This document shows, piece by piece, positions 3,993 through 59,329 of a stretch of 64,000 nucleotides of DNA. A program made the translations under genes and the position numbers. The stretch comes from Haliotis cracherodii (lineage: Eukaryota): positions 70,680,001 to 70,744,000 of the forward strand of contig NW_027266286.1 in NCBI RefSeq assembly GCF_022045235.1, written 5' to 3'. Position 1 is the stretch's first letter; each line of letters starts with the position of its first letter. Under the pieces are notes generated by a model. That model saw only the letters and a list, made by a program, of their open reading frames with translations. It was not told the origin of the DNA and searched no databases.

Positions 3993-4162
3993 CTGGGCAT
4001 ATTCAATGTAGCCTTTGTGTATCAGGTTTAAATCTCAGATTAGCTCTGAGAACAATTCTTTAAATGTCAATATAATGCATGTGTTCGTGAGTTTCATGGG
4101 AGTCACGTGGGCTTTCCTCACTCAAAATGTCAAGAAACTTTATGACTATGATACTGTTTAAA

Positions 4163-4378
4163 GATCTGTGAAGATCTGGGTTAGAATTGGTCTTGAGTAA
4201 CCCATGCATGTCGTAAGAGGTGACTAATGGGATCGGTTGGTCAGACTCACTCACTTGGTTGATGCATGTCATCATATCCCAATGTGTGTAGATCAATGCC
4301 CATGATGTTAATCACTGGATTGTCTGGTCCAGTCATTTTCAGACTGTAAATGTAGTGCAGTGTAAATCAACAAACAAA
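4163..4378 (+). mobile_element. Family B short retroposon (no tRNA head), single-module type
   Basis: GATCTGTGAAGATC...CCCATGCATGTCGTAAGAGGTGACTAATGGGATC...GGATTGTCTGGTCCAG; (AAAC)n tail. Confidence 0.8.
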
Positions 4379-4578
4379 ACTGTTAAAGCGATGTTATGTC
4401 CAACTCAGACCCTGACCTCGAAGTGTATTCCAGCATCTATTCTGGGGATTGGGGGTATAATGGCTGCCGGACAGATTGGGTACTGTACTACAGGGGAGGA
4501 CACTCTCTCGCCACAGAGGCAATCCAATATTCCACATCAATTTGTGTTTCTCATCTCTCTGCTGTAGACATTGTAAAA

Positions 4579-4752
4579 GGGGCGGTCGGGTAACCTTGTG
4601 GTTAAAGCGTTCGCTCATCATGGCGAAGATCTGGGTTCGATTCCTGACATGGGTACAATGTGTGAAGCCCATTTCTGGGGTCTCCTGCCGTGATATTGCT
4701 GGAATATTGCTGAAAGCGATGTAAAACCATACTCACTCACTCACTCACTCAC
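4579..4752 (+). mobile_element. SINE family A (about 170 bp, tRNA-derived)
   Basis: A box (GTGGTTAAAGC), B box GGTTCGATTCC, (TCAC)n tail; TSD tagacattgt. Confidence 0.9.
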
Positions 4753-5076
4753 TAGACATTGTGATTAGTGCCTTGTGTCAAACACATTGTCTATGTAAGC
4801 AACTGTTAGATCAATACTGTAAATCGTGAAATGAATGTGTCACTTTATTAGTATAAGTTTGACCCATGACCTAAAATGCGAGAAGGTTGAGCAGTATTTT
4901 GCTTGTAAGATTATTTGACAAGGTTTCCAGGAACAAGACGCTGTCATACACGGATGGCGACTTTCATAACTGCTTGACCAACTTGTGTAAACAAACTGAT
5001 CACATTTGATATAGAGGTTGGCGAGAAGCACTGTCTAAATCTAGAGTTCAATTACATTGTTTATTAGAGCTTTGTT

Positions 5077-17865: not shown

Positions 17866-18181
17866 GAGAAGAAGGAGAATGAGGAAGAGGAGGATGATGT
17901 TGAATGAGGACCGGAAAGAGAAGGTGGAGGTTGGAGGAGGAGAATGAGAAGAAGGATGTTAGAGGATGAGGATTATATTGGAGGAGATTGGAGGAGAAGA
18001 AGCAGGAGAAGAAGATGCAGGAGGAGGATGTTGGAGGATGAGGAGAAGGAGGATGTTGGAGGAGGAGGATGTTGGAGGAGATTGGAGAAGGATGATGATG
18101 ATGTTGGAGGATGAGGAGAAGGAGGATGTTGGAGGAGAATGATGTTGGAGGAGGAGAAGGAGAAAAGAAGGAGGAGGAGGA
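17866..18181. repeat. Purine-rich (GGA/GAA/GAT)n low-complexity tract in the last FAM76 intron
   Basis: Composition. Confidence 0.9.
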
Positions 18182-18317
18182 GTTGCGTGAATCGATGCTC
18201 ATAAAGTCAATCAATGGATTGTTCGGTCCAGACTTGATTATTTACAGACCACTGTCATATAGCTGGAATATTGCTGAGTGAGGCGTTAAGTAACAAATAA
18301 TCCAACAAAACAAACAA
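18181..18317 (+). mobile_element. Family B, 3' half
   Basis: gatgctcat...tagctggaatattgctgagtg...aaac tail. Confidence 0.8.
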
Positions 18318-18699
18318 TAATGATGGATACATGCAATAGTAACTGGGGTTGTGCAGTCTTCTGTTTTCCGTATGAATAGACAAACTTTAAGGAAGTTGTA
18401 CTCATTTGGTCTTATGATTACATTTATTTCTCTTAAGCATATCAGTATTAACTTTTTCATTATTAATACCAAACTGTTATTCAGCAATATCAAACTATTT
18501 GGGTTATACAATGACAATTTCCAATTTATCCCAGCCCAATCTTCCCTTATAGTGATATGAGAGCAGCATGTTCAATTACAATAAGTACACAATGTGAGAC
18601 CTCATTTTTAGGACCTCTGACATACCTTATCAAATAAATAAGTCTCTAGAAATCCTGTGACATGAATCATTTCCACCTGCAGAAAGTATGGACACTTAC

Positions 18700-18801: not shown

Positions 18802-20426
18802 CTGGAAGAAAGGGAAGGCTGTATGAAACTCACAGGATCATCAAACAAATTCTGTGTTATATGGCAATGTATTTTATAGTTTAACAATGATCGTAACTGT
18901 GTTATGTTGTTTCAATAGAGATTCGGTAGAAGCTGCATTGTGTTTGTGCAGGGATTAGTCGTCAGGAATTAAGTACTATTAAATCAAAGCAGTCGTCAGA
19001 AAGTTACTATATTAAAATACAAGTGTGCAAGCTCCTCACAGCGATAGCCTGTTCGTGGAGCTCTCTATACTATCTCTGCCACCAGTGAAAGCTCCCTACT
19101 GTGATAGGTGACCACAACCATGCTTTGAGTTGAACTCACAACCGACTACTATGTTTACCATGTTTACAAACAAATGATGCTGCTGAATAATCTTACCTTT
19201 GCTAAATTATTTTCTTTCTTTGTCAATTTGATTACAACTATCATGTAATTGGTATAGTAAGAATGTAAGGGAGAAGTTGGTTGATTTTCTGTTCATCTGC
19301 AACCTCGAACCAATCCGATCAAACAAACATTAAGGTCAATTCATCTGGAATATATGGTCAGTCGTAAACCTTTTTCAAAATTAATTGTGATGGCATTCCC
19401 ACAGACATTAAGAAAAGTATAAACATTACTACATTTGGGGTTAAGGGGCAAAGTTTTAAGATTCTTGTAATGACGTGCACACACTGGTGGCAGCAATGTT
19501 ACCAGGAGTGTAACAAAAGTGTCACACGCTGGGGAGCTTGACAAGTGTGGTGTGTAAACTCCCAGTATACCATGGACTATGGAATATTCTGTTCTGGAAG
19601 CGACTTGGACTGTATAAAAGGGGACAGTAACGTGTTTACGCATCTATCGCATATTTGGTCTCTGACACACATGCATTTTCATCACATCAAAACCAGCTTT
19701 TATGTGAGGATCACCCATCATCCCCGATTCCCTGCCTTGTGTATCACGGAAGCTTGACCACTGTCACCACAGGATGAATATATATTATTATCACTGACTT
19801 TTGCTGTCACCAGTGTATTCTTGTATTTGATACTGACCTCTGCCATCATATTATTTCTTGCCATTGAATATTGCACTACCACTATATTGTGAACTGATAT
19901 TGTTATTGCTGAGCACTAACTTGTTTTGATTTGTAAATTATTTGTTGATAGTATACCACTTGTTTGTGGTTTGTTGGTTTCACACTAAGTTCATTTATGC
20001 ACAGATTTCTGGATTAACATCTTGGGAATTAACACATAACATCTGACAATGTAAATAGTCAATAAAATTGTTTACTATGCTTAGTGAAAACACTTTCAGA
20101 ACTATTTCACTTTGAATAGTACATGCATGTGTTCCACATTCAACAGTATGCAGATAAATCATGGAATGCCAGCATAATGTGGGAGGAAACACCTTAACTG
20201 ATGCAGATTCGGATGTTCCCAAAGCCACAAGTAATAATATGGTGCTAACAAACCAAGAATCCAAATTGATTAAAATCTGAGATTTGATCCCGCATCCACC
20301 ACACACAACTTACAGCACCTTCACCCCCCTGGGCCCTGTGGTATTGGTGCTATTGTGACTTTCAAACTGGTTAAACTCTAGCCCGACAGCTGTCCATGAA
20401 AATAATAACAAGGAAACACATGCTAC

Positions 20427-20577
20427 CTTCTTATCCTTCTCTTTGAGCTGTTGGTCTTTGCCTTGCAGCTGTTTCTTGAGAGATTCGAGCTGTTCTCTAA
20501 GCTGTGTGATGGCAATCATCTGGTCTGAGGAACCGATGTCCATAGTAGCTGCTGTGTCTGTTATACTGCTGCTGGTA
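20427..20577 (-). CDS. FAM76: FAM76 exon 7 (...DQMIAITQLREQLESLKKQLQGKDQQLKEKDKK), coiled coil
   Basis: ttacag| and |gtagca; 151 bp; matches the FAM76 C-terminal coiled coil. Confidence 0.92.
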
Positions 20578-20924
20578 CTGTAACAACAGCTTACGATTAA
20601 CAACAAATCTTTATGTAGCCAGCAGGGCTTGCTCCTTTCAAAAATTACTAGCCCTTCTCCAAACTAACAGGCCCAAAACTAAATGCTGGAGGCCACCCAG
20701 GTAGCTCAGAAAATTTTAGAACTCCTCACCCCTAAAACACCATTTCCTGCACTCTGAAATTAAATCTTGGCTTCTATTGCCTCATTTCATGGCGATTTTA
20801 TGAGCAAATAAAGAATTTGTTGTTGTACAGAATATTATGAAATGGCTGCCAGGTGTGTCATTCTACCGAGGTGATCACACCATTCAGACAACCTCATCAA
20901 AATTTGAAATTTTAGCAAACCGGT

Positions 20925-23613
20925 AAATTGTATATTTATATACTTATCCTATCTCACACTTTGCATTTCTCCCTTCTTCTTCGATCCTATGTGGCAACAT
21001 ACTCTGATTTTGAAAACTGTCTAGCCTTGTGAGCGGGAAAAAAACCCACACAATCAAACGGTTAACGATCCCGATACATGAGCATGAGATCGGGTATACA
21101 TGCCGAACGTTTTTTCCCATATGTCATTGACATATAGAATGACCCTGTAGCTGTAAACGCATAAGCAAAACGGCAGACGACTTAAAATCCAACCAGGAAG
21201 GACATCGATTCTTCAAACAAAACACAGCAACTACCTCCCACGGACCATAGAGTGCGCTAGGTTTGGGTAACTCTTTTAGAGGTGAGCGGAATAAAGGTTC
21301 GGGACACCGATCTCTTTTTCTTTTCTTTTTCGTTTTTGGATCGGCCACACCAAATGGTGACTTCATACATTAAGACTGAGAAGTCTGTACAGAGGATCTA
21401 ATCCACCCTCCTAAAGGGACTCGATCTGGGAAACCCAAACAAGCAAAAAACATGTAACACCACGTAAATGTTTCATGATTTATTCTGTATATACAATTGT
21501 AACCCGCAAGGATTACGAAGTATAACAGTTTATGTTCTGCATGAACTGGGGCGAAGGTAGTGAGACGCGAAAACAGTATCAGACTTCAAAAAGCATCCTC
21601 CATGATGGTTGAAAGGGTGCAGTTACTGTGGAGGGCCATGGTAGAAGCAACAGCACGAATCTCGTGAGGATAAGACGTTGTAGGTGGAGGCAGCCCAGCG
21701 AAGGAATATGCTTGCAGGATGATGTAGCGCAGCCAGAAGGATAGTGTCATACGAGAAATTTCCCATGTAGACGGGAAGTAGATGACAGAGTTAATAGAAC
21801 GCGAGGTAGGTTGCTAACGTGGATCCCCAAACTTTCCATGTTAAACGCAGGTTATGTAAATATTTGGCGATCTGTTGAGGCCAAGCCGAGGCAGGAGTGG
21901 AAATATCACAAGCACGACAATAAGTCTCAAAAGCTGTCCACTTGTGGTCATAAAGGCGCCTGGTGGAAGAACAATGGGCAGCAGTGATGGTCTTCACTAC
22001 CTACTGGGAGTAGCCTTTTGCGACGAGGGACTTCGGCAGATGGAGTGTTGTCAGGGACTGATGGAGCTACCGAGAGTGAGGTTGAAAGATGAGGTTGTCG
22101 CGGAGTTGAAGACAATGAAATAGTTCGTCAGCGAGCCTTAGCAAGGTGGGGAACCAGTTGTGTGTTGGGCAATAGGGCGCAACCAAAATCAGAGACAGGC
22201 AATTGGTGGCTGCTACCTTCTGCAGGACCTGAGGGAGGAACCCTCTCAGGGGGGAAAAGCGTAGGCATTGAGACTTTCCCACGAGATTGCCAATGCTCCC
22301 AAGCTAGGGGTCAGGGAAGGGAGATACAAATTGGGATAGTTGAGTGTTGAAGCTGGTGGCGAAGAGGTCTTCTTCTGGGGTCCGATAAAGTTGGCAGATC
22401 CATTGGAAAGATTGTGGATGATGACACCACTCAGTTGGTGATGGTCTGTCTGGTCTGGATAGGGAATCTGCTATGATGTTGGATATCCCCAGAATGTGCC
22501 GAGCGTGGACATGTATTTTGAGGGAGTCGATGAGATGAAAGAACTCAAGAGCAAGTGAGAGTAGGGACATCGACTCTGTGGATCTCATCCTGTTGATGTA
22601 CCACACTACCGCCGCAGACTGGATCATGAGGGAGGAGGACCGGAGGAGGTTCGACCAATGCGAATTCGCAAGAATGGCTGCCTGGCACTCGAGATTGATG
22701 ACAGACAGTTGCAGCGTCGACAAACAGAATCCTCGGGAAGATTCGATGGCGCCCTTGGGTCCGGTATAGGAATCCGATCGACACGAAGAGGGCTTTGAGC
22801 CACGTCTACCTCTCTGGCCTCTGCCGCGCCTGAGAAAGGGATTAGGCCGGGAGGAAATAAGCTCGCATAAATCACACTGGGCAGGAACAAATTGGTGATA
22901 TTGGCGTTCCTTTTTCTCTTGATCCTCCAATTGTCTTTTCTGAAGACATAGGAGGTCTACAGTGACCTGAAGGCTAGAGTCTCTCTGCACATCCTGTGTG
23001 ACCTGCTGTATCGCATCAGCAATCAAGGAGCAGGAAGACCAGGGTTGCTGATACAGTTTGGCCTTGACCTGATCGTCCCAGGAAGAATGTTGCAGTACAC
23101 TCCCCGAGTAAAGGCATCTTCTTCGGAATGAGTGGAGAGAGGCCACTTGTGGCGTCCAAGTGCGTTAGGTCCCAACCTTCAACCACATAAGACGATGTCG
23201 AGCACTTCCAAATCGGGAAAGGGGACCGCAGTAGATAGTCGCAACATAAGGAGTGAGGATGTGACATGGAAAAGGTACGTCTGCATTGTCTACACGCAGG
23301 ATGTTGTTTGTCCTTTTTTCCCATATTTATCAGCCGAAGAATACTTGACAACTTGACAACAATATTCTCTGATATTACAAACACGATGAGAAAGAGAATG
23401 ATTTGGTAGGTGTACATGTGGTCAGTTCAAGCCGTCTTGGCGTGCACAAGAGGCACATAATTGACCTGCTTTGGACATAATCATGGAGATGCGGAGGGCT
23501 TGGGGGGCTATCTTTATTTCAGAAGCTGGAAAAATGATTAAAGCATGTTCCCACATAGGATAAAAAAATAAGGGACAAATGCAATGTGTGAGATAGGATA
23601 AGTTTAAAAATTT
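20925..23613 (-). mobile_element. Internally deleted, decayed DIRS1-type tyrosine-recombinase retrotransposon in FAM76 intron 6
   Basis: About 80-bp inverted terminal repeats (acttatcctatctcacac...cctatgtgg); gag-like CxxC ORF; RNase H (YINR...ARHILGISNIIADSLSR); methyltransferase-like (DLFATSFNTQL, LILVAP); YR (PHEIRAVAST...FASHYLR); RT missing; stops and frameshifts. Confidence 0.85.
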
Positions 23614-24005
23614 ACATGATTCAAGAGCAGTGTCCAAATTAAAAAAATAAAACAGACACAGAGAAGGGGTGAAATTTTGACTAGCCTTTATGTTTCAGCA
23701 AGCCTTTCAAAATTCAGTTAAATCAACCCTAACAATTACACTCCGCTCTATTGCCTACATGATCTGGTTCGTTTCATTATTGAACAGCAGTATTTCAGCT
23801 ATATCACTGCAGCATTAATAAAACCTGACAGGAAAACCAGTGCATCGCAGTTCACAGCATCATCAATGCTCCAACCTGACAACAACTAACAGCTAAGCCA
23901 GTGACCCTGACAAACCGAACCCATTTTGAACTATAATCTGGTAAACAAGCAGGAGTTCCTGAGTATCCAGTGTGTGCCAAAACCTTTTGTGTATACTAGT
24001 CTGAA

Positions 24006-24140
24006 CATGCATGTCATTGTATCCCAATTGTGTAGATCGATGCTCATGACATCAATCCCTGGATTGTCTGGTCAAGACTCGATTACTTACAGACCGCCAT
24101 ATACCTAGAATATTGCTGAGTGAGGCATTAAACAACAAAC
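24006..24140 (+). mobile_element. Family B, 3' half
   Basis: Aligns to the other B copies. Confidence 0.8.
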
Positions 24141-24230
24141 TACAATGTGTTAGAGCAGTATTACTCTTTTTTAATCGTACAAACAGTGTCCTGCCCTGTC
24201 CTTAATCTCAAGACTGATATAGACACTTAC

Positions 24231-24317
24231 CTTTTTGGAGTAGATACGCCATTTGAGGAATTTTTTTCTGTTCTAGCTTTCTTGTTTGGACTAGTGGGAG
24301 ATGAAGTGTCTTCCGAC
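24231..24317 (-). CDS. FAM76: FAM76 exon 6 (SEDTSSPTSPNKKARTEKNSSNGVSTPK)
   Basis: ctcaag| and |gtaagt; 87 bp; phase 2/2; basic KKAR motif. Confidence 0.82.
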
Positions 24318-24611
24318 CTTGAGATGCAAAGTACATGAAATAAGTGTCAACTTATATTGTTTAAGTGAAAGAAACTGAAGATGAAGACTCGGACAAAAAT
24401 GTTAGGACCAGAATACCTCCCCATACAGCTTCCAAATGTCATTAAGGAGAACTACTACAATATGGATGATAAAAGTTTTAATCAGAAGAACACTCGAAAA
24501 TTTAATTACAACCAAACATTTTCACATTAACTATTGACGAAAAATAAATGAACAAAGTCGGTAATACAAAAACAAATATTTACAAAATATGTCCTGTCAT
24601 GTTCTAAAAAG

Positions 24612-24780
24612 TGAGTGAGTGAGTGAATATGGTTTTACGCCACTTTTAGCAATATTCCAGCAATATCACAGCGGGGGACACCAGAAATGGGCTTCACACA
24701 TTGTACCAATGTCAGGAATCGAACCAGGGTCTTCGGCGTGACGAGCGAACGCTTTAACCACTAGGCTACCCGACCGCCCC
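24612..24780 (-). mobile_element. SINE family A
   Basis: Full length; 12-bp TSD tgttctaaaaag. Confidence 0.92.
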
Positions 24781-24972
24781 TGTTCTAAAAAGAGTATTGC
24801 ACATGAAAATCAGTACATTTGGTTCTCCGACTCTTTTAGCACCATTCCAGTCATACCACAGCAGGGTTAACATCAAGATTGGATGTACATTGTAACCATG
24901 TCTTTGGCATAATAAACCAAAACTTCAACCAATATGTCATCCAAACACCCCTAGCCATTGAGAAAGAACTCA

Positions 24973-25539
<567 letters not shown>

Positions 25540-26061: not shown

Positions 26062-26290
26062 GACCCGTGAAGAAAGGAGGCTATACTTGTTGTGAGAGGC
26101 GACTAACGGGATCGGGTAGTCAGACTCACAGACTTGGTTGATGCATGTCATCGTATCCCAATTGCATGGATTGATGCTCATAATGTCAGTCACTGGACTG
26201 TCTGGTCCAGATTGATTATTTAATGTCGCCGTCATATAGCTGGAATATTGCTGAGCACTGCGTTTAAAAAATAATAAACAAATAAATACA
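26062..26290 (+). mobile_element. Family B with an internal deletion in the 5' module
   Basis: GACCCGTGAAG start, GGCGACTAACGGGATC, shared tail. Confidence 0.85.
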
Positions 26291-26513
26291 ATAAGCCTAC
26301 GAGCACTGCGATGTTCATTGGACTGCATAATGCTCCAGAACATCAAGGCATAATGACATACAGTCATCCCACACTGCCCTTCGGTCCTCACTAGTCAGCT
26401 CTAAGCATGGGGCACTGAGGAACCCTTCTAACCTGGAGTCCCCACGGGGATTTAACAATCTCATATCCACTCTTAAAATTAATTGTGAGAGCAGTTTATT
26501 CAAATCATTATCA

Positions 26514-26747: not shown

Positions 26748-27935
26748 TGAGGAACGTACAATAAGTTTTGCAACTGGGGCATTTGTGTTAATACAAACAA
26801 TGTCAACTTGTGGTAGGTGTGACACTAGTCATAACATCAGGTTGACACGTGTCATAACAAGTTCCAGACACAACAATAAGTTAGATGTGATGGCTTCATT
26901 CACCTAAGGGTGGTCACAATCAAGGATTCTCTCAAACATTAACAACCCGCTGTAATAAAGTTCCTAACCAAGGAGGGATGCGAAGCAAAAGAAATCCATG
27001 ATCGCATGTGTAAAGTGATGGGTAAGGATGCTCCTGACTATTCCACAGTTTGCCGTTGGTCTCTACAGTTTAAAAGGGGTAGGGAGTCCATAAACGATGA
27101 CCCAAGGTCAGGCAGGCCTTCAGATGCCACCCAACCGGAAACCATCGCTGCTATAGAAAGAAGAATTTTGTCTGACCGACAAGTGAAAGTATCTGAACTT
27201 TCTAGGGAATTCCAAATATCATTTGGAACTGTTGTAACCATTATTCATGAGCATCTTGGTATGTCCAAGGTGGTACCTAGAAACCTCAGAGCTCAAGATC
27301 GCCATCAGAGAACTGAAAGTTGTTGAGACCTCCTGGATCTCTATACTGCTGATGAAGCCAGATTTCTAGTGACAGGGGATGAAACCTGGATCCACCACTG
27401 GGACCCAGAAACTCAATTGGAATCCATGCAATGGAAGCATCCCAATTTTCCGCCTCCGAGGAAGTTTCGCACACAACCATCGGCTGGCAAGGTAATGGCC
27501 ACCATATTTTGGGATGCAAGAGGCATATTACCGATTCATAACATGACACCAAAAACTACAATCAATGGACAGTATTATGCAAATGTAATGAAAGAATTGC
27601 GAAAATCTGTTCGCCAGAAAAGCTGTGGGATGTTAACACGTGGTATTCTACTTTTGCATGACAACGCTCCAGTTCACAAGTTGAAAATTGCACAGGCCGC
27701 CATATGTGAATGTGGATTCGAACAGTTAGTCACCCACTCTACAGCCCAGACTTATCCCCCAGTGACTATTTCCTGTTCCGGCAAATGAAATCTGGCCTAC
27801 GTGGAAGATGCTTCCAGGATGACGAGGACATAAAGAGTGCCACCGAGGTGTGGTTAGAGGGCCAATTTGCGGATTTCTATAAAAGTGGTATTAAAAGGAC
27901 AAATGGAATAAGTGAATTGAGGTGCATATACAATG
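26748..27935 (+). mobile_element. Decayed mariner (DD34D, irritans/Himar-like) transposon with pseudogenised transposase
   Basis: TA followed by TIR-like TGAGGAACGTACAATAAGTTTTG; VPRNL, TGDETW, SAGKVMATIFWD, HDNAPVH, YSPDLSPSDYFLF spread over broken frames; right end lost next to a family D MITE. Confidence 0.9.
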
Positions 27936-27939
27936 ATAT

Positions 27940-28314
27940 AGATCAATTGCAGGATTTGCAAAGTATGTGTACCGTCAATGGGGCATTGACAGATATTTTC
28001 CAAATCTTTCCATGTTTTTAATCAATTTTCTCAAGTGATTTGATGCACTTCACACGGTAAGACGTTTTGTTACAATATATAGATCTTGATCATCCATCAG
28101 ATCATCTGACTTGGCACTGCTATCTTGTCTGAAGCAAATGCAATTGATATGAATCTGATTGATCAATAGAAGGGACAGAGACAGGCACAACGTAATCATG
28201 GTAATAGCCACTGGTTGCTATACGATTGAGCAACGGAATTCCAGCCCTGTTTGGCAAGGAAGGAACTGGACTTTTAATTTTACAGTCTGTTAACTCCCTT
28301 GCCTTGAAGAGATG
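27940..28314 (-). mobile_element. Family D partial copy
   Basis: Reverse complement of about 1885-2255, including one TIR. Confidence 0.75.
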
Positions 28315-29090: not shown

Positions 29091-29316
29091 TGATTTGGTT
29101 GGTTGATTGGTTGATTGGTTGGTTCGTTTAACGCCACACAATATTCCAGCTATATGGACCAGACAAGTCCAGCGATTAATATCATGTGCATCGATCCACA
29201 CAATTGGGATCAACCAACCCAGCGAGCCTGACCACCCAACCCCGTTAGTTGCCTTTTACGGCAAGCATTGTCGCCTTTTACGGCAAGCATATTCTACCCC
29301 GGATCTGCATGGGTCA
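29091..29316 (-). mobile_element. Family B, two-module type, minus strand
   Basis: Reverse complement reads gacccatgcagatccggggtagaat, two tgcttgccgtaaaaggcRac modules, then taacgggg. Confidence 0.8.
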
Positions 29317-34127: not shown

Positions 34128-34376
34128 GACCCATGTAGATCTTGGTTTTAATTGGTCTTCAGCAATCCATGCTTGTTGTAAGATGCGACTAACATGATTG
34201 GGTGGTCAGAATCATTGACTTGATTGATGCATGTCATTGTATCACAGTTGCGTAGATTGATGCTCATGATGTGAATCACTGGATTGTCTGGTCTGGACTC
34301 AATTATTTGTTGACTGTCGTCATACAGCTGGAATATTACTGAGTTCAGCGTTAAACAACAGCTAAACAACTACAAA
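34128..34376 (+). mobile_element. Family B, full length
   Basis: TSD agtccact; GACCC start; tail present. Confidence 0.85.
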
Positions 34377-37129
34377 AGTCCACTATAATCCAAAGTAAAT
34401 CTGTACAATTTGCATGCAGTTTTAAAAAGTGTGTAAAATGCCCAGTCACAAATGTGCTCATGACTAGTGCCCATGGCCCCATGGCTCTTCACAATCCATC
34501 AGTCAGGTAGACACTACATAGCTTGAAAACATCCATGAATATCATAAGTACTGTGACCAAGAAATGGGGATGTCATTGATTGGAAGATTTGGTTTAGACA
34601 TATTGACTTAAGAGTATCACAATATATGTAAATATTTCCAGACTGACCAGATTATGCTTTACAAACATTTAAATATTTCAACATGATCAAATTCTTGTGT
34701 AACTTCAGGCGTTATTATATTATCACAGGCATGTCCGACGTCTCTAAAGAAATACTCTACCAATTGCACCAAACAAAACTAGGTTGTACCCTGACACCAA
34801 AAATGTATCAAAGTTGAAACATAGGCCTGTCTGCTGCCAGTGTCACATAAATTAGTAAGACATTGCTGTTAAACGTAATAGGAACATGTGCACATAATCT
34901 TGAAGTACCCACAATTTGATGATGTCACGCCTAAGAAAGCATGACAAATTACACGTAACACAGGGATTAGTGATGTATGATGAGGTATGTTCAAAGAAAG
35001 ATTTTGTGTGGACAAGTAAGGCAAGTCAGACAAAAGAATACATGCACTTGGTTCATGTTGACATAAATATTGGGTAGCATGTTTCAATAATAGGTAGCCA
35101 TTGTGCATGTTTTATTCAGCTAAATCAAGCCCCACCAGGACACCTTCATTTTTATGTTTAATTTTAAACTATGACAATCATTATAATAATTTGTACACTG
35201 AACCTGAAGTAGGTGCTTTAACAGTGCCTCACAAGGGAAGTTATGTAGTTTTGAAATTGTCCAAACTCAGGTTTGAAGACTACATTACTGTCTTTATATA
35301 CAGAATGTTTTCCTTAGTTTTGGAAAAGTTAGTGACAAGTGATATCTGTCCATGAGGTGAAAGAACATGATGACTTAAGTGTTGCTTTTGCCTTATCACA
35401 ATTTCTTCTTTCCTTAAAATTTAACGCAACTACTTTATCACAAACAAGACAGTGATAGCTGCCTGACAAACTGAATATTTATCACTGCAATAAATTAGAT
35501 TTGACGCCTGTCATCTGGTCATATTCTTTCCATATATCTGTACAAATAGAATGTGTTATCTGTCCAGAAACTCCAAATGCGGACATATTGACCGACATGT
35601 ACGTATCAATGTATGGTAGGGTTGGGATAGACTGCATGATCCGAAGAAATTGAAGCCTGGCTTTATTACACATGACATGCTTCAGCAAGTCTGGATTACA
35701 GCTGATCTGTATGAGGTTGTCCTTTTCCATGTTCACCAGTCAATGACGCTGTTGGTACACCTCTCTATTAAATGTCATGTGATGTTGCTTTCAATTGTCC
35801 CATGTCAATTTCAAATAGATCCCTGTCAATTTCAAATTGTTTGCTTAGACAAAATTGGTGCGAAGTGAGTTTGCATAGAGAGGTGTGCACTTTCACTTTC
35901 TTGAATCAGTGTTTGAAGAAATGTTTGCTCAGAGTTGAACATTGCTAAATGAATCATTTATTCTCTACCCTGTCTCATTGTCAGTCGGCATGTTGATAGA
36001 AGGATTGATAAAAGTGCTACATGTGTGATTGTGGCTTAGTGATCAGAATATTTGTAGGTTGAAAACTTCATGCTTCCCTGAGTTGTATACAACCTCTTGA
36101 CATGTGTAATTTGTTTAAACTGATAGGGGTAAAATGTTATTGAAATATGAATCAGTTAATGTTGAGAAATTTCTTTTGTATTCCACTTAATCTCTTCTTG
36201 CGTTATCATGTTATGGTAGCCTATCTACAGTGCTTTTGATCGTGTAGATTTTTTGTCTTGAAGATTTGAAAACAGATTTTTGTTACGACAGTGAAACAGC
36301 AATAACTCTGATAGCTATGTATGTAAGGTAGGGTGCACTAAAGTAACATTCTGTTGACTCAGTGGGATGTACCTTTAGGCCAAGACTTGAGGTCAGTAGG
36401 TTGAAGAAACATTTATTTATTAATATTTCCTCAAATGTCAGGTGGCTAGAAATTATTATTTAAGAAAATAGATTGGGGCATGAGTTTTAAAGATAAATTT
36501 TCAACATGTTTTAGCTGAAGTCATTTAGATAATTTATTTATATTGTGGCAGGAAGTGAATTTTTGGCTATTACCTCTGGTTGGAGGAATATAAAAACCTG
36601 CTGCTTTAAATTTTTAAATTGTTTTAAATTTGTAGGAGTCAGATTTGTAAAGAAAATTTTTGAAAAAATATTTTGTTTGGACGAATGTTTAACATGTTTA
36701 ATAACTGTATTAGATACCATATCCATATCAGAGAAATTCTTTTTTATCTATCATTGTAACATTGTTGCTTACCCGGTATGTTGAAGGCAGATAATCAATT
36801 GTTTTTCTTGTCCTAGGCATCAAATATATTGTACATGTATTTCTAGAGGCTTAATGATCATGCTGATGAGTCACAATACCTGGCCTCCTTAATCAAGAAG
36901 AGATTGCTGGAAATTCCATCATTCTAGGAAATGCTGATCAGTAGGTAATGACGGTAATCACCATTACTTTTGTAGATTTACAGAGGGATTTACCTGGGTC
37001 TATTGAGTTGTATGTCTGGTTTGGTTTTCAAACTGTTTTATGTCATCGCATCATAGATTCATACTACAATTTCAGAGTGTATTCCGCTGAATATTGATTT
37101 CCCTTCCTTATTTTGTAAATAATGTGCTC

Positions 37130-40383: not shown

Positions 40384-40896
40384 ATTTTTCTTGAGAGTGT
40401 GACAAGTTTAAGGCTCGGTAATGATGATCAGAGAGCATGCCCTCAGGTTATTTGAATATGTCTACCTTTATTGTTTTTTATTTAATGAGGAAAAGTTACT
40501 GACAAATGTTAAAATGTATATGTCTGTAAGATTCTGTGCAGGACATTTTGATGCAACATCTATAAAGTCTTGAATTAAACATGTCTAATTTGGTGGGAAT
40601 GTTGGAATATTTGACCATGGACATCATCCAACTTATCCACAAGCAATTTTGGAATTGTTGTGAGTGAAACATTTCTACATTTTGACCAATAATTTCTTGT
40701 CCTTGGAACTTTTTATGCAAAATAGTATTTGGTTTATAGTTTAATTGACATAGTTATGTCAGTCTGTGCTAAAAGCTTTAAGCCTACTCGCCCGAACTTG
40801 GCTCTGAGCAAAATTATCAGTTGATGTCCTGTGAATTATTATTTGTTAAACATACTAGACCAAACAGAATGTTACCAGACTCATACTTTAGGTAAC

Positions 40897-41160
40897 GACC
40901 CGTGAAGGTCCTGGTAGAGAATAGGTCTTCAGTAACCCATACGTGCCGTAAGAAGGCAAGTATGCTCTGTTGTAAGAGGTAATGGGTGGTCAGGCTCGCT
41001 GACTTGGTTGATGCATGTCATTCCCAATTGCGTGGATCGATGCTTACTATATCAATCACTGGATTGTCTGGTCCAGACTAGATTGTTTATAGACCACCGA
41101 CATAGCTGGAATATTGCCAAGTGTGGCGTAAAACAACAAACAAAACAAGCAAACAAGTAA
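40897..41160 (+). mobile_element. Family B, full length, two-module type
   Basis: TSD actttaggt(a/g)ac; starts GACCCGTGAAGGTCC. Confidence 0.88.
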
Positions 41161-42440
41161 ACTTTAGGTGACCTAATAAAATTTGTGGGGTACAAAACAG
41201 TTCAGCAGCATTAATGTTAGACTAACATTTAGTCTATGACATCTTATATTACACAATACCCTTCTCGATTCAAAAAATAAAAAAAATAATAGAGCTAGCT
41301 AGAGCTGGCTAGACTTGCTTTTGTATACATTTCTAGATTGGATTTTTTCATAAAATAAATATATTCTACAGTCATGGTGCAGGACTACATTAATGAATAT
41401 AGTACTCATATGAAAAGAAAAGTCCAGCAGTATTTATAAATATTGTACACTTTAAAAGGAAACAAAATAAGGTTGTTTCAAAATCAAATTACTTTCTGTT
41501 TGTTTTTGTTTATAATTTATTTTAAGAATATAAAATTAACCTAAAAGGAGACCTGTCAGAAATCTGTATGAAGAAAGAAATATATTGATGTGGCCTTATA
41601 TTAACAGATTAACCATGTTACCATATCTAAAGCTGGTTGAAGTCATTCATTGCCTGTACACTTCCTCGTGTATATTGTCCTGATCCTTTAAGGAACACAT
41701 TACCACTTAATATGTCATGCCAGTTGATATGTGTAATCCACTGACCAAGGTTATGTCATGCTGTATAACAGCCCGATCTACCCAACACCGTGTAGCTTTC
41801 AACATGTGCACGCTTCACAGAGTCTTGTAATCCTGTTCTAATCCGCTTCATATCTGACCTAGTCCTTGCAATCCTCCCTAATCCCAATCAGATCTGAAAT
41901 AATCATAATCTCATAGATTTTTCAACCAAACCTCAGCTACATGGCTCTCGAACAACCAGAGTAAGGATATTTCAAAATCAAGACGAAGTAGCTATCAGTT
42001 GTTCTGTAGGTACAGAGTGATAAGAGACAGCCGTAATTAGATCCAACACCGATTACATTCTAAGCTCTCACTTCATTTTACACACCAGCGAAAGCTTGCT
42101 TTATTCACCGTATCGCCCTTTTGACCTAGGCATTATTGGTGGAACCTATATACCCATTGTGTGCCATTATAGTCAATCTCTCCAACACACAAACGGGTTG
42201 CAACCTGCCGAGTGATCCTTTCACGGTCCCTCTTCCAGTCAGGAGGGCCGTGTAATCAAACCACATCAATTCCAGCCGAGTTTGTTTACTACCCTATCTG
42301 ACAAGCCTCGCTCTTTGCAGGCTGATTGTTAAAATAAATCAATCTCTCGTAAGTATTGTCTGGCATTGAACAAGGTGAAGGAGTTCGGGAACATTACCTC
42401 CACAGCGGAGGAATTCTTAACATAGACTTTCATCATCTCT

Positions 42441-47093: not shown

Positions 47094-47953
47094 CCGTCTT
47101 TCGACCCAATAAGCGCACAGGGCGCTTAAAAAAAGACAGAAGGGGTGGGCGCTTATTGGGACCAATTCAGAGTCAAATTGGCGTAAATTCATCAGTAAGC
47201 CTTTTTGTATTTTCTTGAGAAAAGTGCACACTTTTTTTCCAAAAAACACAGCTGTGTAGAAGGGGGTGCACATTATATACGAATGAATGAGTTTTGATGG
47301 TTTTTCCCCCAAGGAAAGACATTACTGTGAGCATGTAGCACCAAAAATACCATGTCAACAAATTCATCCTGAAGTTTGCAAATTATTCATGTAATTACAC
47401 TGTCTGGCTATAAAAAGTGTTCTTTAAATATCTGGACTTATGTTTGTAACTAAATTCATTAATTTTATTCAAAATTCCTTTTAGTATTGTTTTAATCAAT
47501 TTCGGCGAAATCGTGTGTGAAGCGATCGGGAAGATAGCCCAACTCACAGTTATTAACAGCAGCCACAGTCAGATTACCGCTACTGACGCCTGGAAACAAA
47601 CTTTAGTTGACAGAGAATGGATACATATATCATAAATGCCATACTTTGATTCGTTAAAAGTCAGCTTTGTTTTTGTTGGACGATTCTATGTCAACACGTA
47701 ATACTCGCGATCACGCGATCACGTGCACGGGAGCCTTGACAGTAACTGGTCAGACTGGTTCCATGTAATAAATAATACCCGGCAATAACGATCAGCTGCT
47801 TTGCTTAGGGTTATTATTATTTTAAGTATGTTATTGAAAGCTGCATCTAAATTAACAAGATATTGGAATATATTATTCCTGATAAAAAAAATAGTTTCAG
47901 ATACAACTGGGTGGCTCTTATTGGGGGAGGGGCGCTTAATGGGTCGAATACGG
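47094..47953. mobile_element. Tc1/mariner-pogo-type MITE related to 5558-5901
   Basis: TA|CCGTCTTTCGACCCAATAAGCGC ... GCGCTTAATGGGTCGAATACGG|TA. Confidence 0.82.
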
Positions 47954-48170
47954 TATGCTTGTCGTAAGAGGCAACTAGTGGGATCAAGTGGTCAGTTTCG
48001 TTGACTTGGTTGATGCATGTCATCATATCCCAATTGCGTGGATCGATGCTCATGATGTCAATCACTGGATTGTCTGGTCAAGACTCGATTATTTACAGAC
48101 TGCCGTCATATAGCTGGAATATTGCTGAGTGCGACGTTAAACAACAACAAACAAACAAACAAAACAAACA
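47954..48170 (+). mobile_element. Family B, 3' part; its 5' part (about 47075-47093) is separated by a TA-targeting MITE
   Basis: ttgccgtaaaaggtgatTA | MITE | TAtgcttgtcgtaagagg. Confidence 0.82.
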
Positions 48171-54359: not shown

Positions 54360-54610
54360 GACCCTTGAAGATCAGGGGTAGAATACGTCTTCATGCTTGC
54401 TGTAAGAGGCAACTGCTTGTCGTAAGAGGCGACTAACAGGATCAGGTGGTCAGGCTCACTGACTTGGTTGATGCATGTCATCATATCCCAATTGCGTGGA
54501 CGATGTTCGTGATGGTAATCACAGGATTATCTGGTCCAGACTCGATTATTTACAGACTGCTGCCATATGGCTTTAAAATTCCTTAGTTTGGCGTTAAACA
54601 ACGAATGAAA
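54360..54610 (+). mobile_element. Family B, full length, two-module type, abutting the CEP57 exon 4 acceptor
   Basis: Flanked by an imperfect duplication cactca(a/t)tctttt(g/c)t(c/t)ag. Confidence 0.85.
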
Positions 54611-54628
54611 CACTCATTCTTTTCTTAG

Positions 54629-54870
54629 AGTTGGGGTCGCAGTTGTCGGCCGCGGAGACGAAGTGTGACGTCCTCGAGAAGCAGCTGAACTACATGAGGA
54701 AGATGGTGCACAATGTGGAGCGGGACCGCCTGGACACCGTCGCCCGCAGCGTCGTCGTGGAACAGCAGAGGGAGGAGGTCATGCCCAGGAAGTTCAAGAT
54801 TCAGGCGGAACGCATCTCCGAGCTGGAGCGAGAACACCTCAAGCTCACAGCCACACAGAATCTAGCAGAG
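54629..54870 (+). CDS. CEP57: CEP57 exon 4 (ELGSQLSAAETKCDVLEKQLNYMRKMV...LTATQNLAE)
   Basis: cttag| and |gtacgt; 242 bp; AAExKCxxLEKQLxYMRxM motif. Confidence 0.95.
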
Positions 54871-55248
54871 GTACGTTACGCATGCCGGGTATAATGTCGA
54901 AGTGAATGAGAAGCTTACCATCATTTGATCATGTTGAGTTAAGACTTTCAATTATTATGATTATTGTTGGGATTTTGGTTATTGTTTGGTTATCTTGAAG
55001 GGTTGAAAATTGGTTGAAGTATGTCAAATGCCTCAAACTGCACAGACTATTGAGAATGTTCATCTTTCCAGGGAGTACTGCGAGACATGTGAACAGTTTG
55101 ATTTACCAATAGATGGGACATTAAAGCAATTACTACAGTTAATTCTGGATATGAGGCGTGGTATTGTTTCATATCACTTCTATACCTTGTCCATGTATTG
55201 ACATTTGTCAAATACAAGACAAGTACAAGTGTAGTGTTTCTTCTACAG

Positions 55249-55589: not shown

Positions 55590-56068
55590 TTCAGCTCCAG
55601 TGTATCTGAGTATGGTAGGTCAGTTAACCTTTAACCTTTCAGTTGCATCTCTTTGTAATGCTAGGATCCGGGATAGGTCTTCAGCAACCCATGCTTGTCG
55701 TAAGAGGCGGCTAACGGGATCGGGTGGTCAGGCTCGCTGACTTGGTTTATGAATGTCATCGTTTCCCACTTGCATTGATCGATGCTCATGATGTCAATCG
55801 CTTGATTGTCTGGTCCAGACTTGATTATTTACAGAGCGCTGTCATATAGCTGGAATATTGCTGAGTGTGGCATTAAACAACAAACAAACAAACTGTAATG
55901 CTAGGATCTGCTTATTGTGGGTTTGAATCCAAGATTCTGCCCTGATTATGATCCTTGGTCTGTCTGCACCATACCTGTGGTCAAGCTTTCACTCCTGTTA
56001 TATATGTCTTCCATCTGCTTTACACTGGGTTTTCCTCCAACATCCAGCTGACATGATATATAACTGAC
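55590..56068 (+). mobile_element. Decayed family C SINE interrupted by a family B copy
   Basis: Flanks rejoin to agttgcatctct...ttgtgggtttgaatcc...ctgattatg...gggttttcctccaacatccagctgaca. Confidence 0.65.
55669..55893 (+). mobile_element. Family B, young, slightly 5'-truncated
   Basis: Perfect 15-bp TSD tgtaatgctaggatc at 55654-55668 and 55894-55908. Confidence 0.92.
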
Positions 56069-58477: not shown

Positions 58478-59075
58478 GTAAGAAGAACTTCCTATAGATC
58501 ATGGGGTGAAGGCCGTCTGTAAGATGGTCATCAGGGTAAACCTTGACTTACAAAAGTGGGGGTTCAGAGGACCCCAGTAATTAATTTTTAGGGTCCTTGT
58601 AAATTAATGAAATGGTGTAGTGTACTGTATGTTTAGATAATTACTTTGGAGCCTGGAATGAATCAATGGTCATGTGGACAGTGGTCATGATTGATGGGTG
58701 ATGGGTGAAATGACAGGCGCCCATCACTGCTGTTGATTCACAGAGATTTATCTAGTCCTGCCCCAAAGCTGATATTTGGCCCCAAGTGTGCAGCAAATTT
58801 CAGTAAAATTTCCCAAAATAAATTAATAAATTCCCAATATTGATGAGTGATGAGTTAAGCAACAAGCAAACCACAGTGGCCATGCTGGTGTTTCAGACTG
58901 ATCGGTATGCTGTATCACACCTTTTAGGTTTAGATTCCAGCCAAAACAACAAGATGACTTGCTTTAGAATCTGTTGATATCAGGCAAGTCCCAAATTATT
59001 GGTTGGAGTTTTGAAAAAAAAATTGCACTTGCTCCTGAACATGTTTTTTTGATGAGTCATATTTGATGCTACACA

Positions 59076-59329
59076 CCTGTGGATATCCGAGGTGAATAGG
59101 TCTTCAGTAACCCATGCTTGCTGTAAAAGGTGACTATGCTTGTCGTAAGGATAGGGTGGTGTGGTTCGCTGACTTAGTTGATTCATGTTATCGTCTCACA
59201 GTTGTGAGGATCGATGCTCATGATGTCATTCACTGGATTTTCTGGTCCAGACTCGATGATTTTTCAGACTGCTGTCATATAGCTGGAACATTGCTGAGTG
59301 CGATGTTAAACAACAAACAATCAATCAAC
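59076..59329 (+). mobile_element. Family B, two-module type
   Basis: 11-bp TSD gatgctacaca. Confidence 0.88.

Follow-up and report, generated by a model that had tools for sequence, protein, structure and literature searches.

A covarying RNA motif with a predicted pseudoknot heads a Haliotis SINE and recurs in LINEs and RNA-virus-like contigs: a candidate block to 5'-3' exonucleases

LP-SINEs (Hdi_LP, Hmi_LP) of Haliotis and oysters were described by Matetovici et al. 2016 (PMC4758252). Their approximately 70-bp head resembles the 5' ends of two Nimb LINEs and one RTE LINE and was proposed in section 10 of that paper as a promoter (untested there), with the ribozyme of L1Tc named as an analogy only. 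The passages of the paper considered here give no head structure, upstream HDV ribozyme, partner LINE or viral copies. Structured RNA units at the 5' end of non-LTR elements are known in other forms as well. The HDV-like ribozymes of R2, RTE and L1Tc are 5'-terminal pseudoknotted units swapped between LINE clades, and the twister variants at the 5' end of Schistosoma Perere-3 are RNA units that abut a non-LTR target duplication (PMC8501958). Viral xrRNAs (flavivirus classes, the Tombusviridae/Luteoviridae class, coremin) form pseudoknots with tertiary-looking conserved linkers; they lie in 3' UTRs, on the coding strand just past the last stop, sometimes in tandem, and depend on a ring braced by the pseudoknot (PMC8374639), which has 15-16 nt and encircles the 5' end. 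Xrn1 is not stalled by simple pseudoknots of the frameshifting kind (PMC10321173), and a 2021 review noted that xrRNAs in cellular RNAs were still to be found (PMC8374639).

Here, we analysed a window of 64 kb of Haliotis cracherodii DNA (the whole stretch, 64,000 nucleotides). At least 11 copies of a retroposon family had been predicted there, and BLAST recovered 11 loci, 10 on the + and 1 on the - strand. No tRNA was found in the 64-kb window, and no Rfam family matched in it at gathering score. The exact 22-nt core of the head has 27,063 matches in the 1.18-Gb genome (reversed control 0). A profile search found 145 copies in 600 kb of spaced samples, from which approximately 2.9x10^5 copies and 4.3% of the bases can be extrapolated genome-wide. 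Exact target duplications of 8-14 bp, close to the 8-15 bp given in the original prediction, flank 58 of the 111 full copies examined, and 26 of these 58 abut base 1. The start that had been proposed for full copies, GACCCGTGAAG, was confirmed at a G corresponding to G40897. The element is a non-autonomous non-LTR retroposon (SINE), as judged from target duplications of variable length, a tail in common with LINEs, a short tandem repeat at its end and its high copy number. Its head is homologous to approximately 70 nt of LINE 5' ends and no tRNA head is present. Hence, the family, which had been called uncharacterised, is most likely the Haliotis LP-SINE of PMC4758252. The profile of the present family has 253 positions, compared to 255 bp for the Hmi_LP consensus, and the scallop 'Nimb-17 homology' sequences (PMC4758252, Fig. 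S2) contain the identical core and fit the same helices that are described below.

The named copy occupies 40897 to approximately 41157, is flanked by a 9-bp duplication and ends in an (AAAC)n tail. It is decayed and belongs to a younger subfamily in which the core is duplicated. The features of this copy, with the helices labelled P1 to P3, and the other family copies are:

40885..40893, + strand, 5' target-site duplication of 9 bp (sequence and script), followed by three extra bases, 40894-40896
40897..40982, + strand, LP head of the named copy with pseudoknot and duplicated, decayed core (covariance model; R1 match 40897-40969, 36.6 bits, E 1.3e-6)
40899..40914, + strand, 5' half of the predicted pseudoknot: P1a 40899-40902, single-U loop 40903, P2a 40904-40910, P1b 40911-40914, with one mismatch (register from homologues, mapped by eye)
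40918..40930, + strand, conserved AGAAUA linker 40918-40923 and P2b 40924-40930 (homologue comparison)
40936..40982, + strand, P3a 40936-40940 and two tandem 22-nt core units at approximately 40941-40962 and 40964-40982, both mutated and the second with a deletion
40983..41104, + strand, SINE body, no known domain identified
41105..41157, + strand, LINE-derived tail, then (AAAC)n (alignment); common to this SINE, the I/Nimb-type LINEs of the genome and a tRNA-headed SINE
41161..41169, + strand, 3' target-site duplication (sequence)
4159..4346, + strand, family copy with single-core head, R1 58 bits (BLAST and covariance model)
18181..18320, + strand, family copy, 5' truncated
24007..24140, + strand, family copy, 5' truncated
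26062..26294, + strand, family copy with internal deletion in the head
29103..29315, - strand, family copy with duplicated core
34128..34387, + strand, family copy with single core
47953..48170, + strand, family copy beginning at the core
54360..54612, + strand, family copy with duplicated core
55655..55893, + strand, family copy, slightly 5' truncated, in sense between CEP57-like exons
59074..59328, + strand, family copy with duplicated core, in sense between putative CEP57-like exons

Several other features were seen in the window. An extra degenerate head at 26384-26450 (-) was found by the covariance model only (E 4e-4), a broken mariner-type transposase lies at 26943-28021 (+), and the tRNA-headed SINE with the shared LINE tail, which served as a control, is present at 4575-4753 and in other copies. 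Exons of FAM76 (20310-25539, -) and CEP57 (54598-54894, +) are divergently arranged; these two genes are neighbours in vertebrates as well.

The core is duplicated in 36 and single in 16 of 56 heads, and the duplicated-core subfamily is younger as well as commoner (7.1% vs 10.4% divergence for single-core copies), which indicates that the architecture tolerates change. Small-RNA reads on the element were few in three runs (7, 100 and 13) and left the head almost uncovered. In the SINE body (locus L026:1674-1704), antisense small RNAs of approximately 31 nt start at one site in a piRNA-like manner, with 63 and 9 molecules in two runs.

For the analysis of the RNA fold, homologues were taken from a metagenome scan with the core alone, which gave 50 loci and 54 matches, 27 of them non-redundant and 19 of these with the AGAAT anchor. 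The cross-pairing test used the 19 non-redundant homologues, chosen on their 3' core only, the 8 of 27 without anchor being dropped from P2. Own partners paired more stably than crossed ones in P2 (-10.3 vs -6.9 kcal/mol) and in P3 (-5.7 vs -3.4 kcal/mol, permutation p <= 1e-5 in both), with the own partner as the single best one in only 4/19 (P2) and 2/19 (P3) cases. In a structure-blind alignment of 15 heads, which were picked by eye as intact, 86.6% of the cells pair compared to 33-48% in slid controls, and both sides changed in 13 of 20 pairs (P1 2/4, P2 6/7, P3 5/5, P4 0/4); as the sequences share ancestry, the values of these pairing tests are not R-scape statistics. The resulting fold begins with a 5' H-type pseudoknot, consisting of P1 (mostly 3-7 bp), a 7-bp P2 and a variable linker ending in AGAAUA, with a single U between P1 and P2 in 23 of 27 fits. 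On its 3' side, P3 closes an internal loop and the hairpin GUCG/CGAC (P4). The mean pseudoknot fit was 10.1 vs 7.9 +/- 0.2 with shuffled upstream sequence, and four held-out viral motifs from outside the model showed P1 of 3-5 bp, the U and 6-7 of the 7 pairs of P2. Hence, the approximately 72-nt head is a covarying RNA motif with a predicted 5' pseudoknot and hairpin core, in which covariation supports P2 and P3 and, more weakly, P1. The hairpin core is near-invariant across phyla. P3 is weak in this species, where a nested version of the originally predicted fold competes with it and has the lowest energy among pseudoknot-free structures in 3 of 4 copies folded.

The original prediction of a conserved pseudoknotted module, derived from a LINE 5' UTR and lacking a tRNA head, is borne out in this general form, whereas most of its helices have to be replaced. 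Its closing stem CCCGT/ACGGG and its pseudoknot between GGGT and ACCC did not pass the cross-pairing test on the 19 homologues (p = 0.88 and p = 0.11, respectively) and can be formed in this species only. The pairing of TGAAGRTC with GGTCTTCA survives, but it serves as P2 of another pseudoknot and not as a hairpin. A further hairpin, TTGYC/GGCRA, has a predicted probability of <= 0.10 compared to 0.51-1.00 for GUCG/CGAC in 27 heads, and its register suits only unit 1 of the core duplication; since the P4 pairs barely vary, covariation cannot settle the register of P4. Its Y/R variants, read as mostly preserving pairs, do not covary. The Y differs between the duplication units (C in 70/75 of unit 1, T in 74/75 of unit 2), one R is a position of the hairpin loop, and the frequency of the variant in GGCRA is at CpG-decay level. 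Finally, the CTAA said to follow unpaired is absent from the named copy, and the C of CUAA is predicted to be paired in P4.

Rfam searches, which had been proposed along with the fold, were run on 12 and 6 loci besides the window and matched no ribozyme family, with twister, hammerhead, pistol and hatchet considered, and no viral family at E <= 5. A hammerhead regular expression matched 0 of 54 strands, a coremin loop expression, used without positive control, likewise 0/54, and a loose twister expression, used without helix check or positive control, 4/54. The anticipated misfit to the canonical HDV fold was seen in every case, with the HDV descriptor fitting the module alone in 0/68 (0/39 LINE modules, 0/29 other heads). 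Compared to HDV-like ribozymes, the module shares the C-N-R-A run after the hairpin, but lacks the P1/P3/L3/P1.1 arrangement, and a true HDV-like ribozyme is its separate neighbour in the LINEs of this genome. From twister it differs in helix order and in the missing Rfam twister match. The likeness to viral xrRNAs lies in the pseudoknot with conserved, tertiary-looking linkers and in the position of the viral copies. Moreover, P4 resembles hp1 of coremin, whose stem also begins with GUC and ends with GAC, but the module does not follow the coremin loop consensus YGAD/YGNNAD (PMC10520033). With a simple H-type 5' domain, a separate 3' domain and no Rfam match it is unlike the known xrRNA classes. 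Furthermore, the known xrRNAs are viral, whereas the module occurs mostly in chromosomal retroelements, where resistance is a prediction.

A gag-like ORF behind one homologue led to at least 150 LINE copies in this genome, the ORF2 of which encodes APE-RT-RNase H. The tail of two aligned LINE copies resembles that of the SINE, and this I/Nimb-type LINE is likely the partner LINE type of the LP-SINEs. The clade names used here (RTE-like, Nimb-like, Tx1-like, RLE-type) follow from the order of domains and from typical motifs rather than from a tree. Among 40 LINE loci found by ORF1 alone, i.e. blind to their 5' ends, 39 carry the module, as do 12/12 in an overlapping LINE sample. In 39/39 it lies directly 3' of one common 57-nt sequence, which fits the HDV descriptor in 37/39 (the descriptor follows the general HDV consensus, and these 37/39 LINE ribozymes are its positive control) and matches RF02682 in 6/6 tested at 27.5-29 bits, below the gathering score of 44 bits. 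Of 14 LINE copies with the tail found, 8 have their target duplication immediately next to the ribozyme, and the ribozyme-side junction is kept in 587 exact copies genome-wide. No LINE copy starting at the module was found with a pattern that catches approximately 56% of such starts; its 2 matches both still had the ribozyme, and control boundaries gave 3 and 4 matches. The lack of such copies disfavours self-cleavage of the module as well as transcription start at its own edge. The LINE modules show compensatory changes in P2. After the hairpin loop, GACUAA is found in 17/39 of them and mostly CAA, CGA, AAA or GAA follow GAC in the rest. These variants still fit C-N-R-A and may thereby leave room for a catalytic C. 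At loci L237-L276 the minimal HDV-like ribozyme is near-identical across many LINE families, abutting the target duplication with the module gapless behind it. A dense LINE cluster was observed at 20.9-21.75 Mb (G000:C2), which holds more than 60 of the first 100 matches listed in less than 1 Mb.

The module also occurs in other carriers. In a core-only scan of viral contigs 9 loci were found, 7 of them with the whole motif (E 5e-7 to 5e-17), two of these seven having belonged to the model training set. Six of the seven contigs, five of them distinct, are RNA-virus-like by their RdRP or capsid domains, and the five encode a peptidase A21 capsid, RdRP_4, RdRP_3 with a nodavirus-type capsid, RdRP_3 and an RdRP-like ORF, respectively. 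As in viral xrRNAs, the motif lies on the coding strand after the last ORF in 5/5 distinct contigs, 4-99 nt past the last stop, with the end of the contig 27-119 nt away. On one contig it forms a tandem whose differences are compensated; every viral copy shows compensatory changes of its own in the helices, and none has the SINE body. Two looser viral scans gave no full motif among 20 new loci. The viral core-only matches L200 and L204 and the bacterial-looking L065 and L078 were treated as chance. Four matches in prokaryote genomes were read as host DNA, three of them being in animal-symbiont assemblies; one lies beside a gag-like ORF and one beside low-complexity sequence. The seventh whole motif is an intact intergenic module (71 bits) in a 212,482-bp contig of a large DNA virus (L198 / L210), approximately 150 nt before the next start codon and with an NAD-dependent ligase nearby; the HDV descriptor has no match in 5 kb around it.

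In elements other than the genome's own LINEs, including RTE-like and RLE-type LINEs, a ribozyme upstream of the module was found in 0/29, where the metagenome LINEs are single copies with 5' ends as assembled. One of these carriers, an element with RT, CCHC and a restriction-like endonuclease, begins at the module within a (TAA)n tract (L058), and an atlas search named no family for its ORF. Head-only tandem arrays occur in L076 and L039 with periods of 74 nt and 76 nt, and the array in L039 precedes an RTE-like ORF. A pattern search for heads outside SINEs in this genome yielded 2 matches, both of which were mutated SINE copies. A search with an RTE-like protein returned only a Tx1-like LINE family with intact 1327-aa frames (L085-L101), one member of which (L086) starts just after a tRNA-like fragment; none of its 17 loci carries the LP head.

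The 5' ends of the ribozyme-less elements, scallop copies included, lie 0-2 nt from P1, which places the predicted P1/P2 pseudoknot near the putatively protected end. The first base of the SINE is not G in 23/86 copies compared to 3/35 in the tRNA-headed SINE (p 0.03). Among young SINE copies this holds for 12/48, against a background of 2.3% and 0/39 in the ribozyme-led LINEs (Fisher p 4e-4). Scallop copies, as judged by eye, mostly have A or C as the first base behind the duplication, a G beside a C-run being seen in 1 of 9 readable full-length copies. Cap-derived G can be copied at element 5' ends (PMC3287187), and the labile first G would agree either with a nuclease that stops imprecisely or with copying of the cap.

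In summary, the module leads ribozyme-less elements, takes second place behind a ribozyme in the LINEs and follows the last stop in viruses. A block to 5'-3' exonucleases is the sole activity compatible with all three contexts, and for this reason we favour an xrRNA-like function, predicted from sequence comparison and held at slightly less than an even chance. SINE copies would be transcribed passively, as parts of host genes or downstream of them, and Xrn1/Xrn2-type decay would remove the upstream host RNA until it stalls at the pseudoknot. The stall would leave an uncapped RNA with a nearly fixed, slightly ragged 5' end, which the LINE enzyme may copy from the shared tail. In the LINEs, formation of the 5' end would fall to the ribozyme, with the module as a second line of protection, whereas in viruses the block would yield a short subgenomic RNA from the 3' end. 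The conserved core may brace the pseudoknot or bind a host factor. Against such a block stands the lack of LINE insertions starting at the module, though they would be expected if the block were often reached; the two can be reconciled only if the ribozyme-cut end is assumed to resist decay. The weak P3 of this species, the tolerated core duplication, the failure of plain frameshift pseudoknots to stall Xrn1 and the chance that the viral contigs are chimeric also count against it. With a little less confidence still, we hold the wider view that the module could represent a new xrRNA class of chromosomal origin, which LINEs, SINEs and RNA viruses of several animal phyla would have exchanged and which would set a 5' end without promoter or ribozyme.

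Alternatively, the module might act as a cap-independent translation enhancer or as a host-factor dock for uncapped LINE and viral RNAs, which would bring SINE RNA to LINE-translating ribosomes. We regard this as rather unlikely as the main role, and it may coexist with nuclease resistance. It would agree with the near-invariant hairpin core, with the tolerated core duplication and with the placement of the module, which belongs to the 5' UTR in ribozyme-cut LINEs and to the 3' UTR in viruses whose polymerases are tombus-like and toti-like; moreover, a role in translation has been suggested for the HDV-like ribozymes of retroelements (PMC6765202). However, it leaves the start 0-2 nt before P1 in ribozyme-less elements unexplained.

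The published proposal for LP-SINEs (PMC4758252; untested there), i.e. an internal promoter, here for RNA polymerase II and with RNA structure as a second function, appears improbable. The sharp start, a labile first G that could be a copied cap and the tandem head monomers (L076, L039) would fit it. Nevertheless, a promoter in DNA would be of no use to RNA viruses, the compensatory changes speak for RNA of one strand, the 587 LINE copies extend upstream with none found starting at the module, and the scallop starts are mostly not G.

For a new class of self-cleaving ribozyme cutting at its own 5' edge, the self-processing RNA of the original prediction, we see a slim chance. The module occupies the same 5' position as HDV or twister ribozymes in RTE and other LINEs (PMC6765202, PMC8501958), combines a compact pseudoknot with a conserved core, stays after P4 within the limits of C-N-R-A in most LINE copies, much as might be expected of an HDV joiner, and occurs in tandem (L076, L196); linear RNA viruses do have ribozymes, reported mainly in 5' UTRs (PMC13725137). 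Yet LINEs with an intact module begin 57 nt upstream at the separate HDV-like ribozyme, and cleavage at its 5' edge in the viruses, where the module precedes the 3' end, would sever that end from the genome. In addition, the SINE ends are more ragged than ribozyme-made ends, neither the HDV descriptor nor an Rfam ribozyme matches, and the C of CUAA is the one predicted to pair in P4.

Least likely of all, the RT encoded by the retroelement would bind the module, and the viral copies would be captured passengers or assembly chimeras. A 5' pseudoknot is bound by the R2 protein (PMC6765202), and invertebrate samples are rich in host retroelement RNA, but the module is common to APE-RT-RNase H, APE-RT and RT-RLE elements with widely differing proteins, and the viral copies keep to the same strand and place with compensated helices of their own and no SINE body.

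The SINE itself is of a known kind. In the open literature searched (outside subscription journals and Repbase/Dfam), no structure of the LP head, no link of xrRNAs to retrotransposons, no tandem of ribozyme and module and no viral copies were described, and an earlier description may exist. Whatever its function, the module is a structured RNA of 75 nt outside Rfam that is conserved in animals, molluscs among them, as well as in three types of LINE and five lineages of RNA viruses. The published 'LINE promoter' head can thus be placed behind a separate ribozyme. Promoterless elements have so far been thought to obtain their fixed 5' end from internal promoters or ribozymes; a nuclease block, if true, would be a third way. 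If the wider reading as a new xrRNA class is correct, an xrRNA of chromosomal origin would be present at approximately 3x10^5 copies in this genome.
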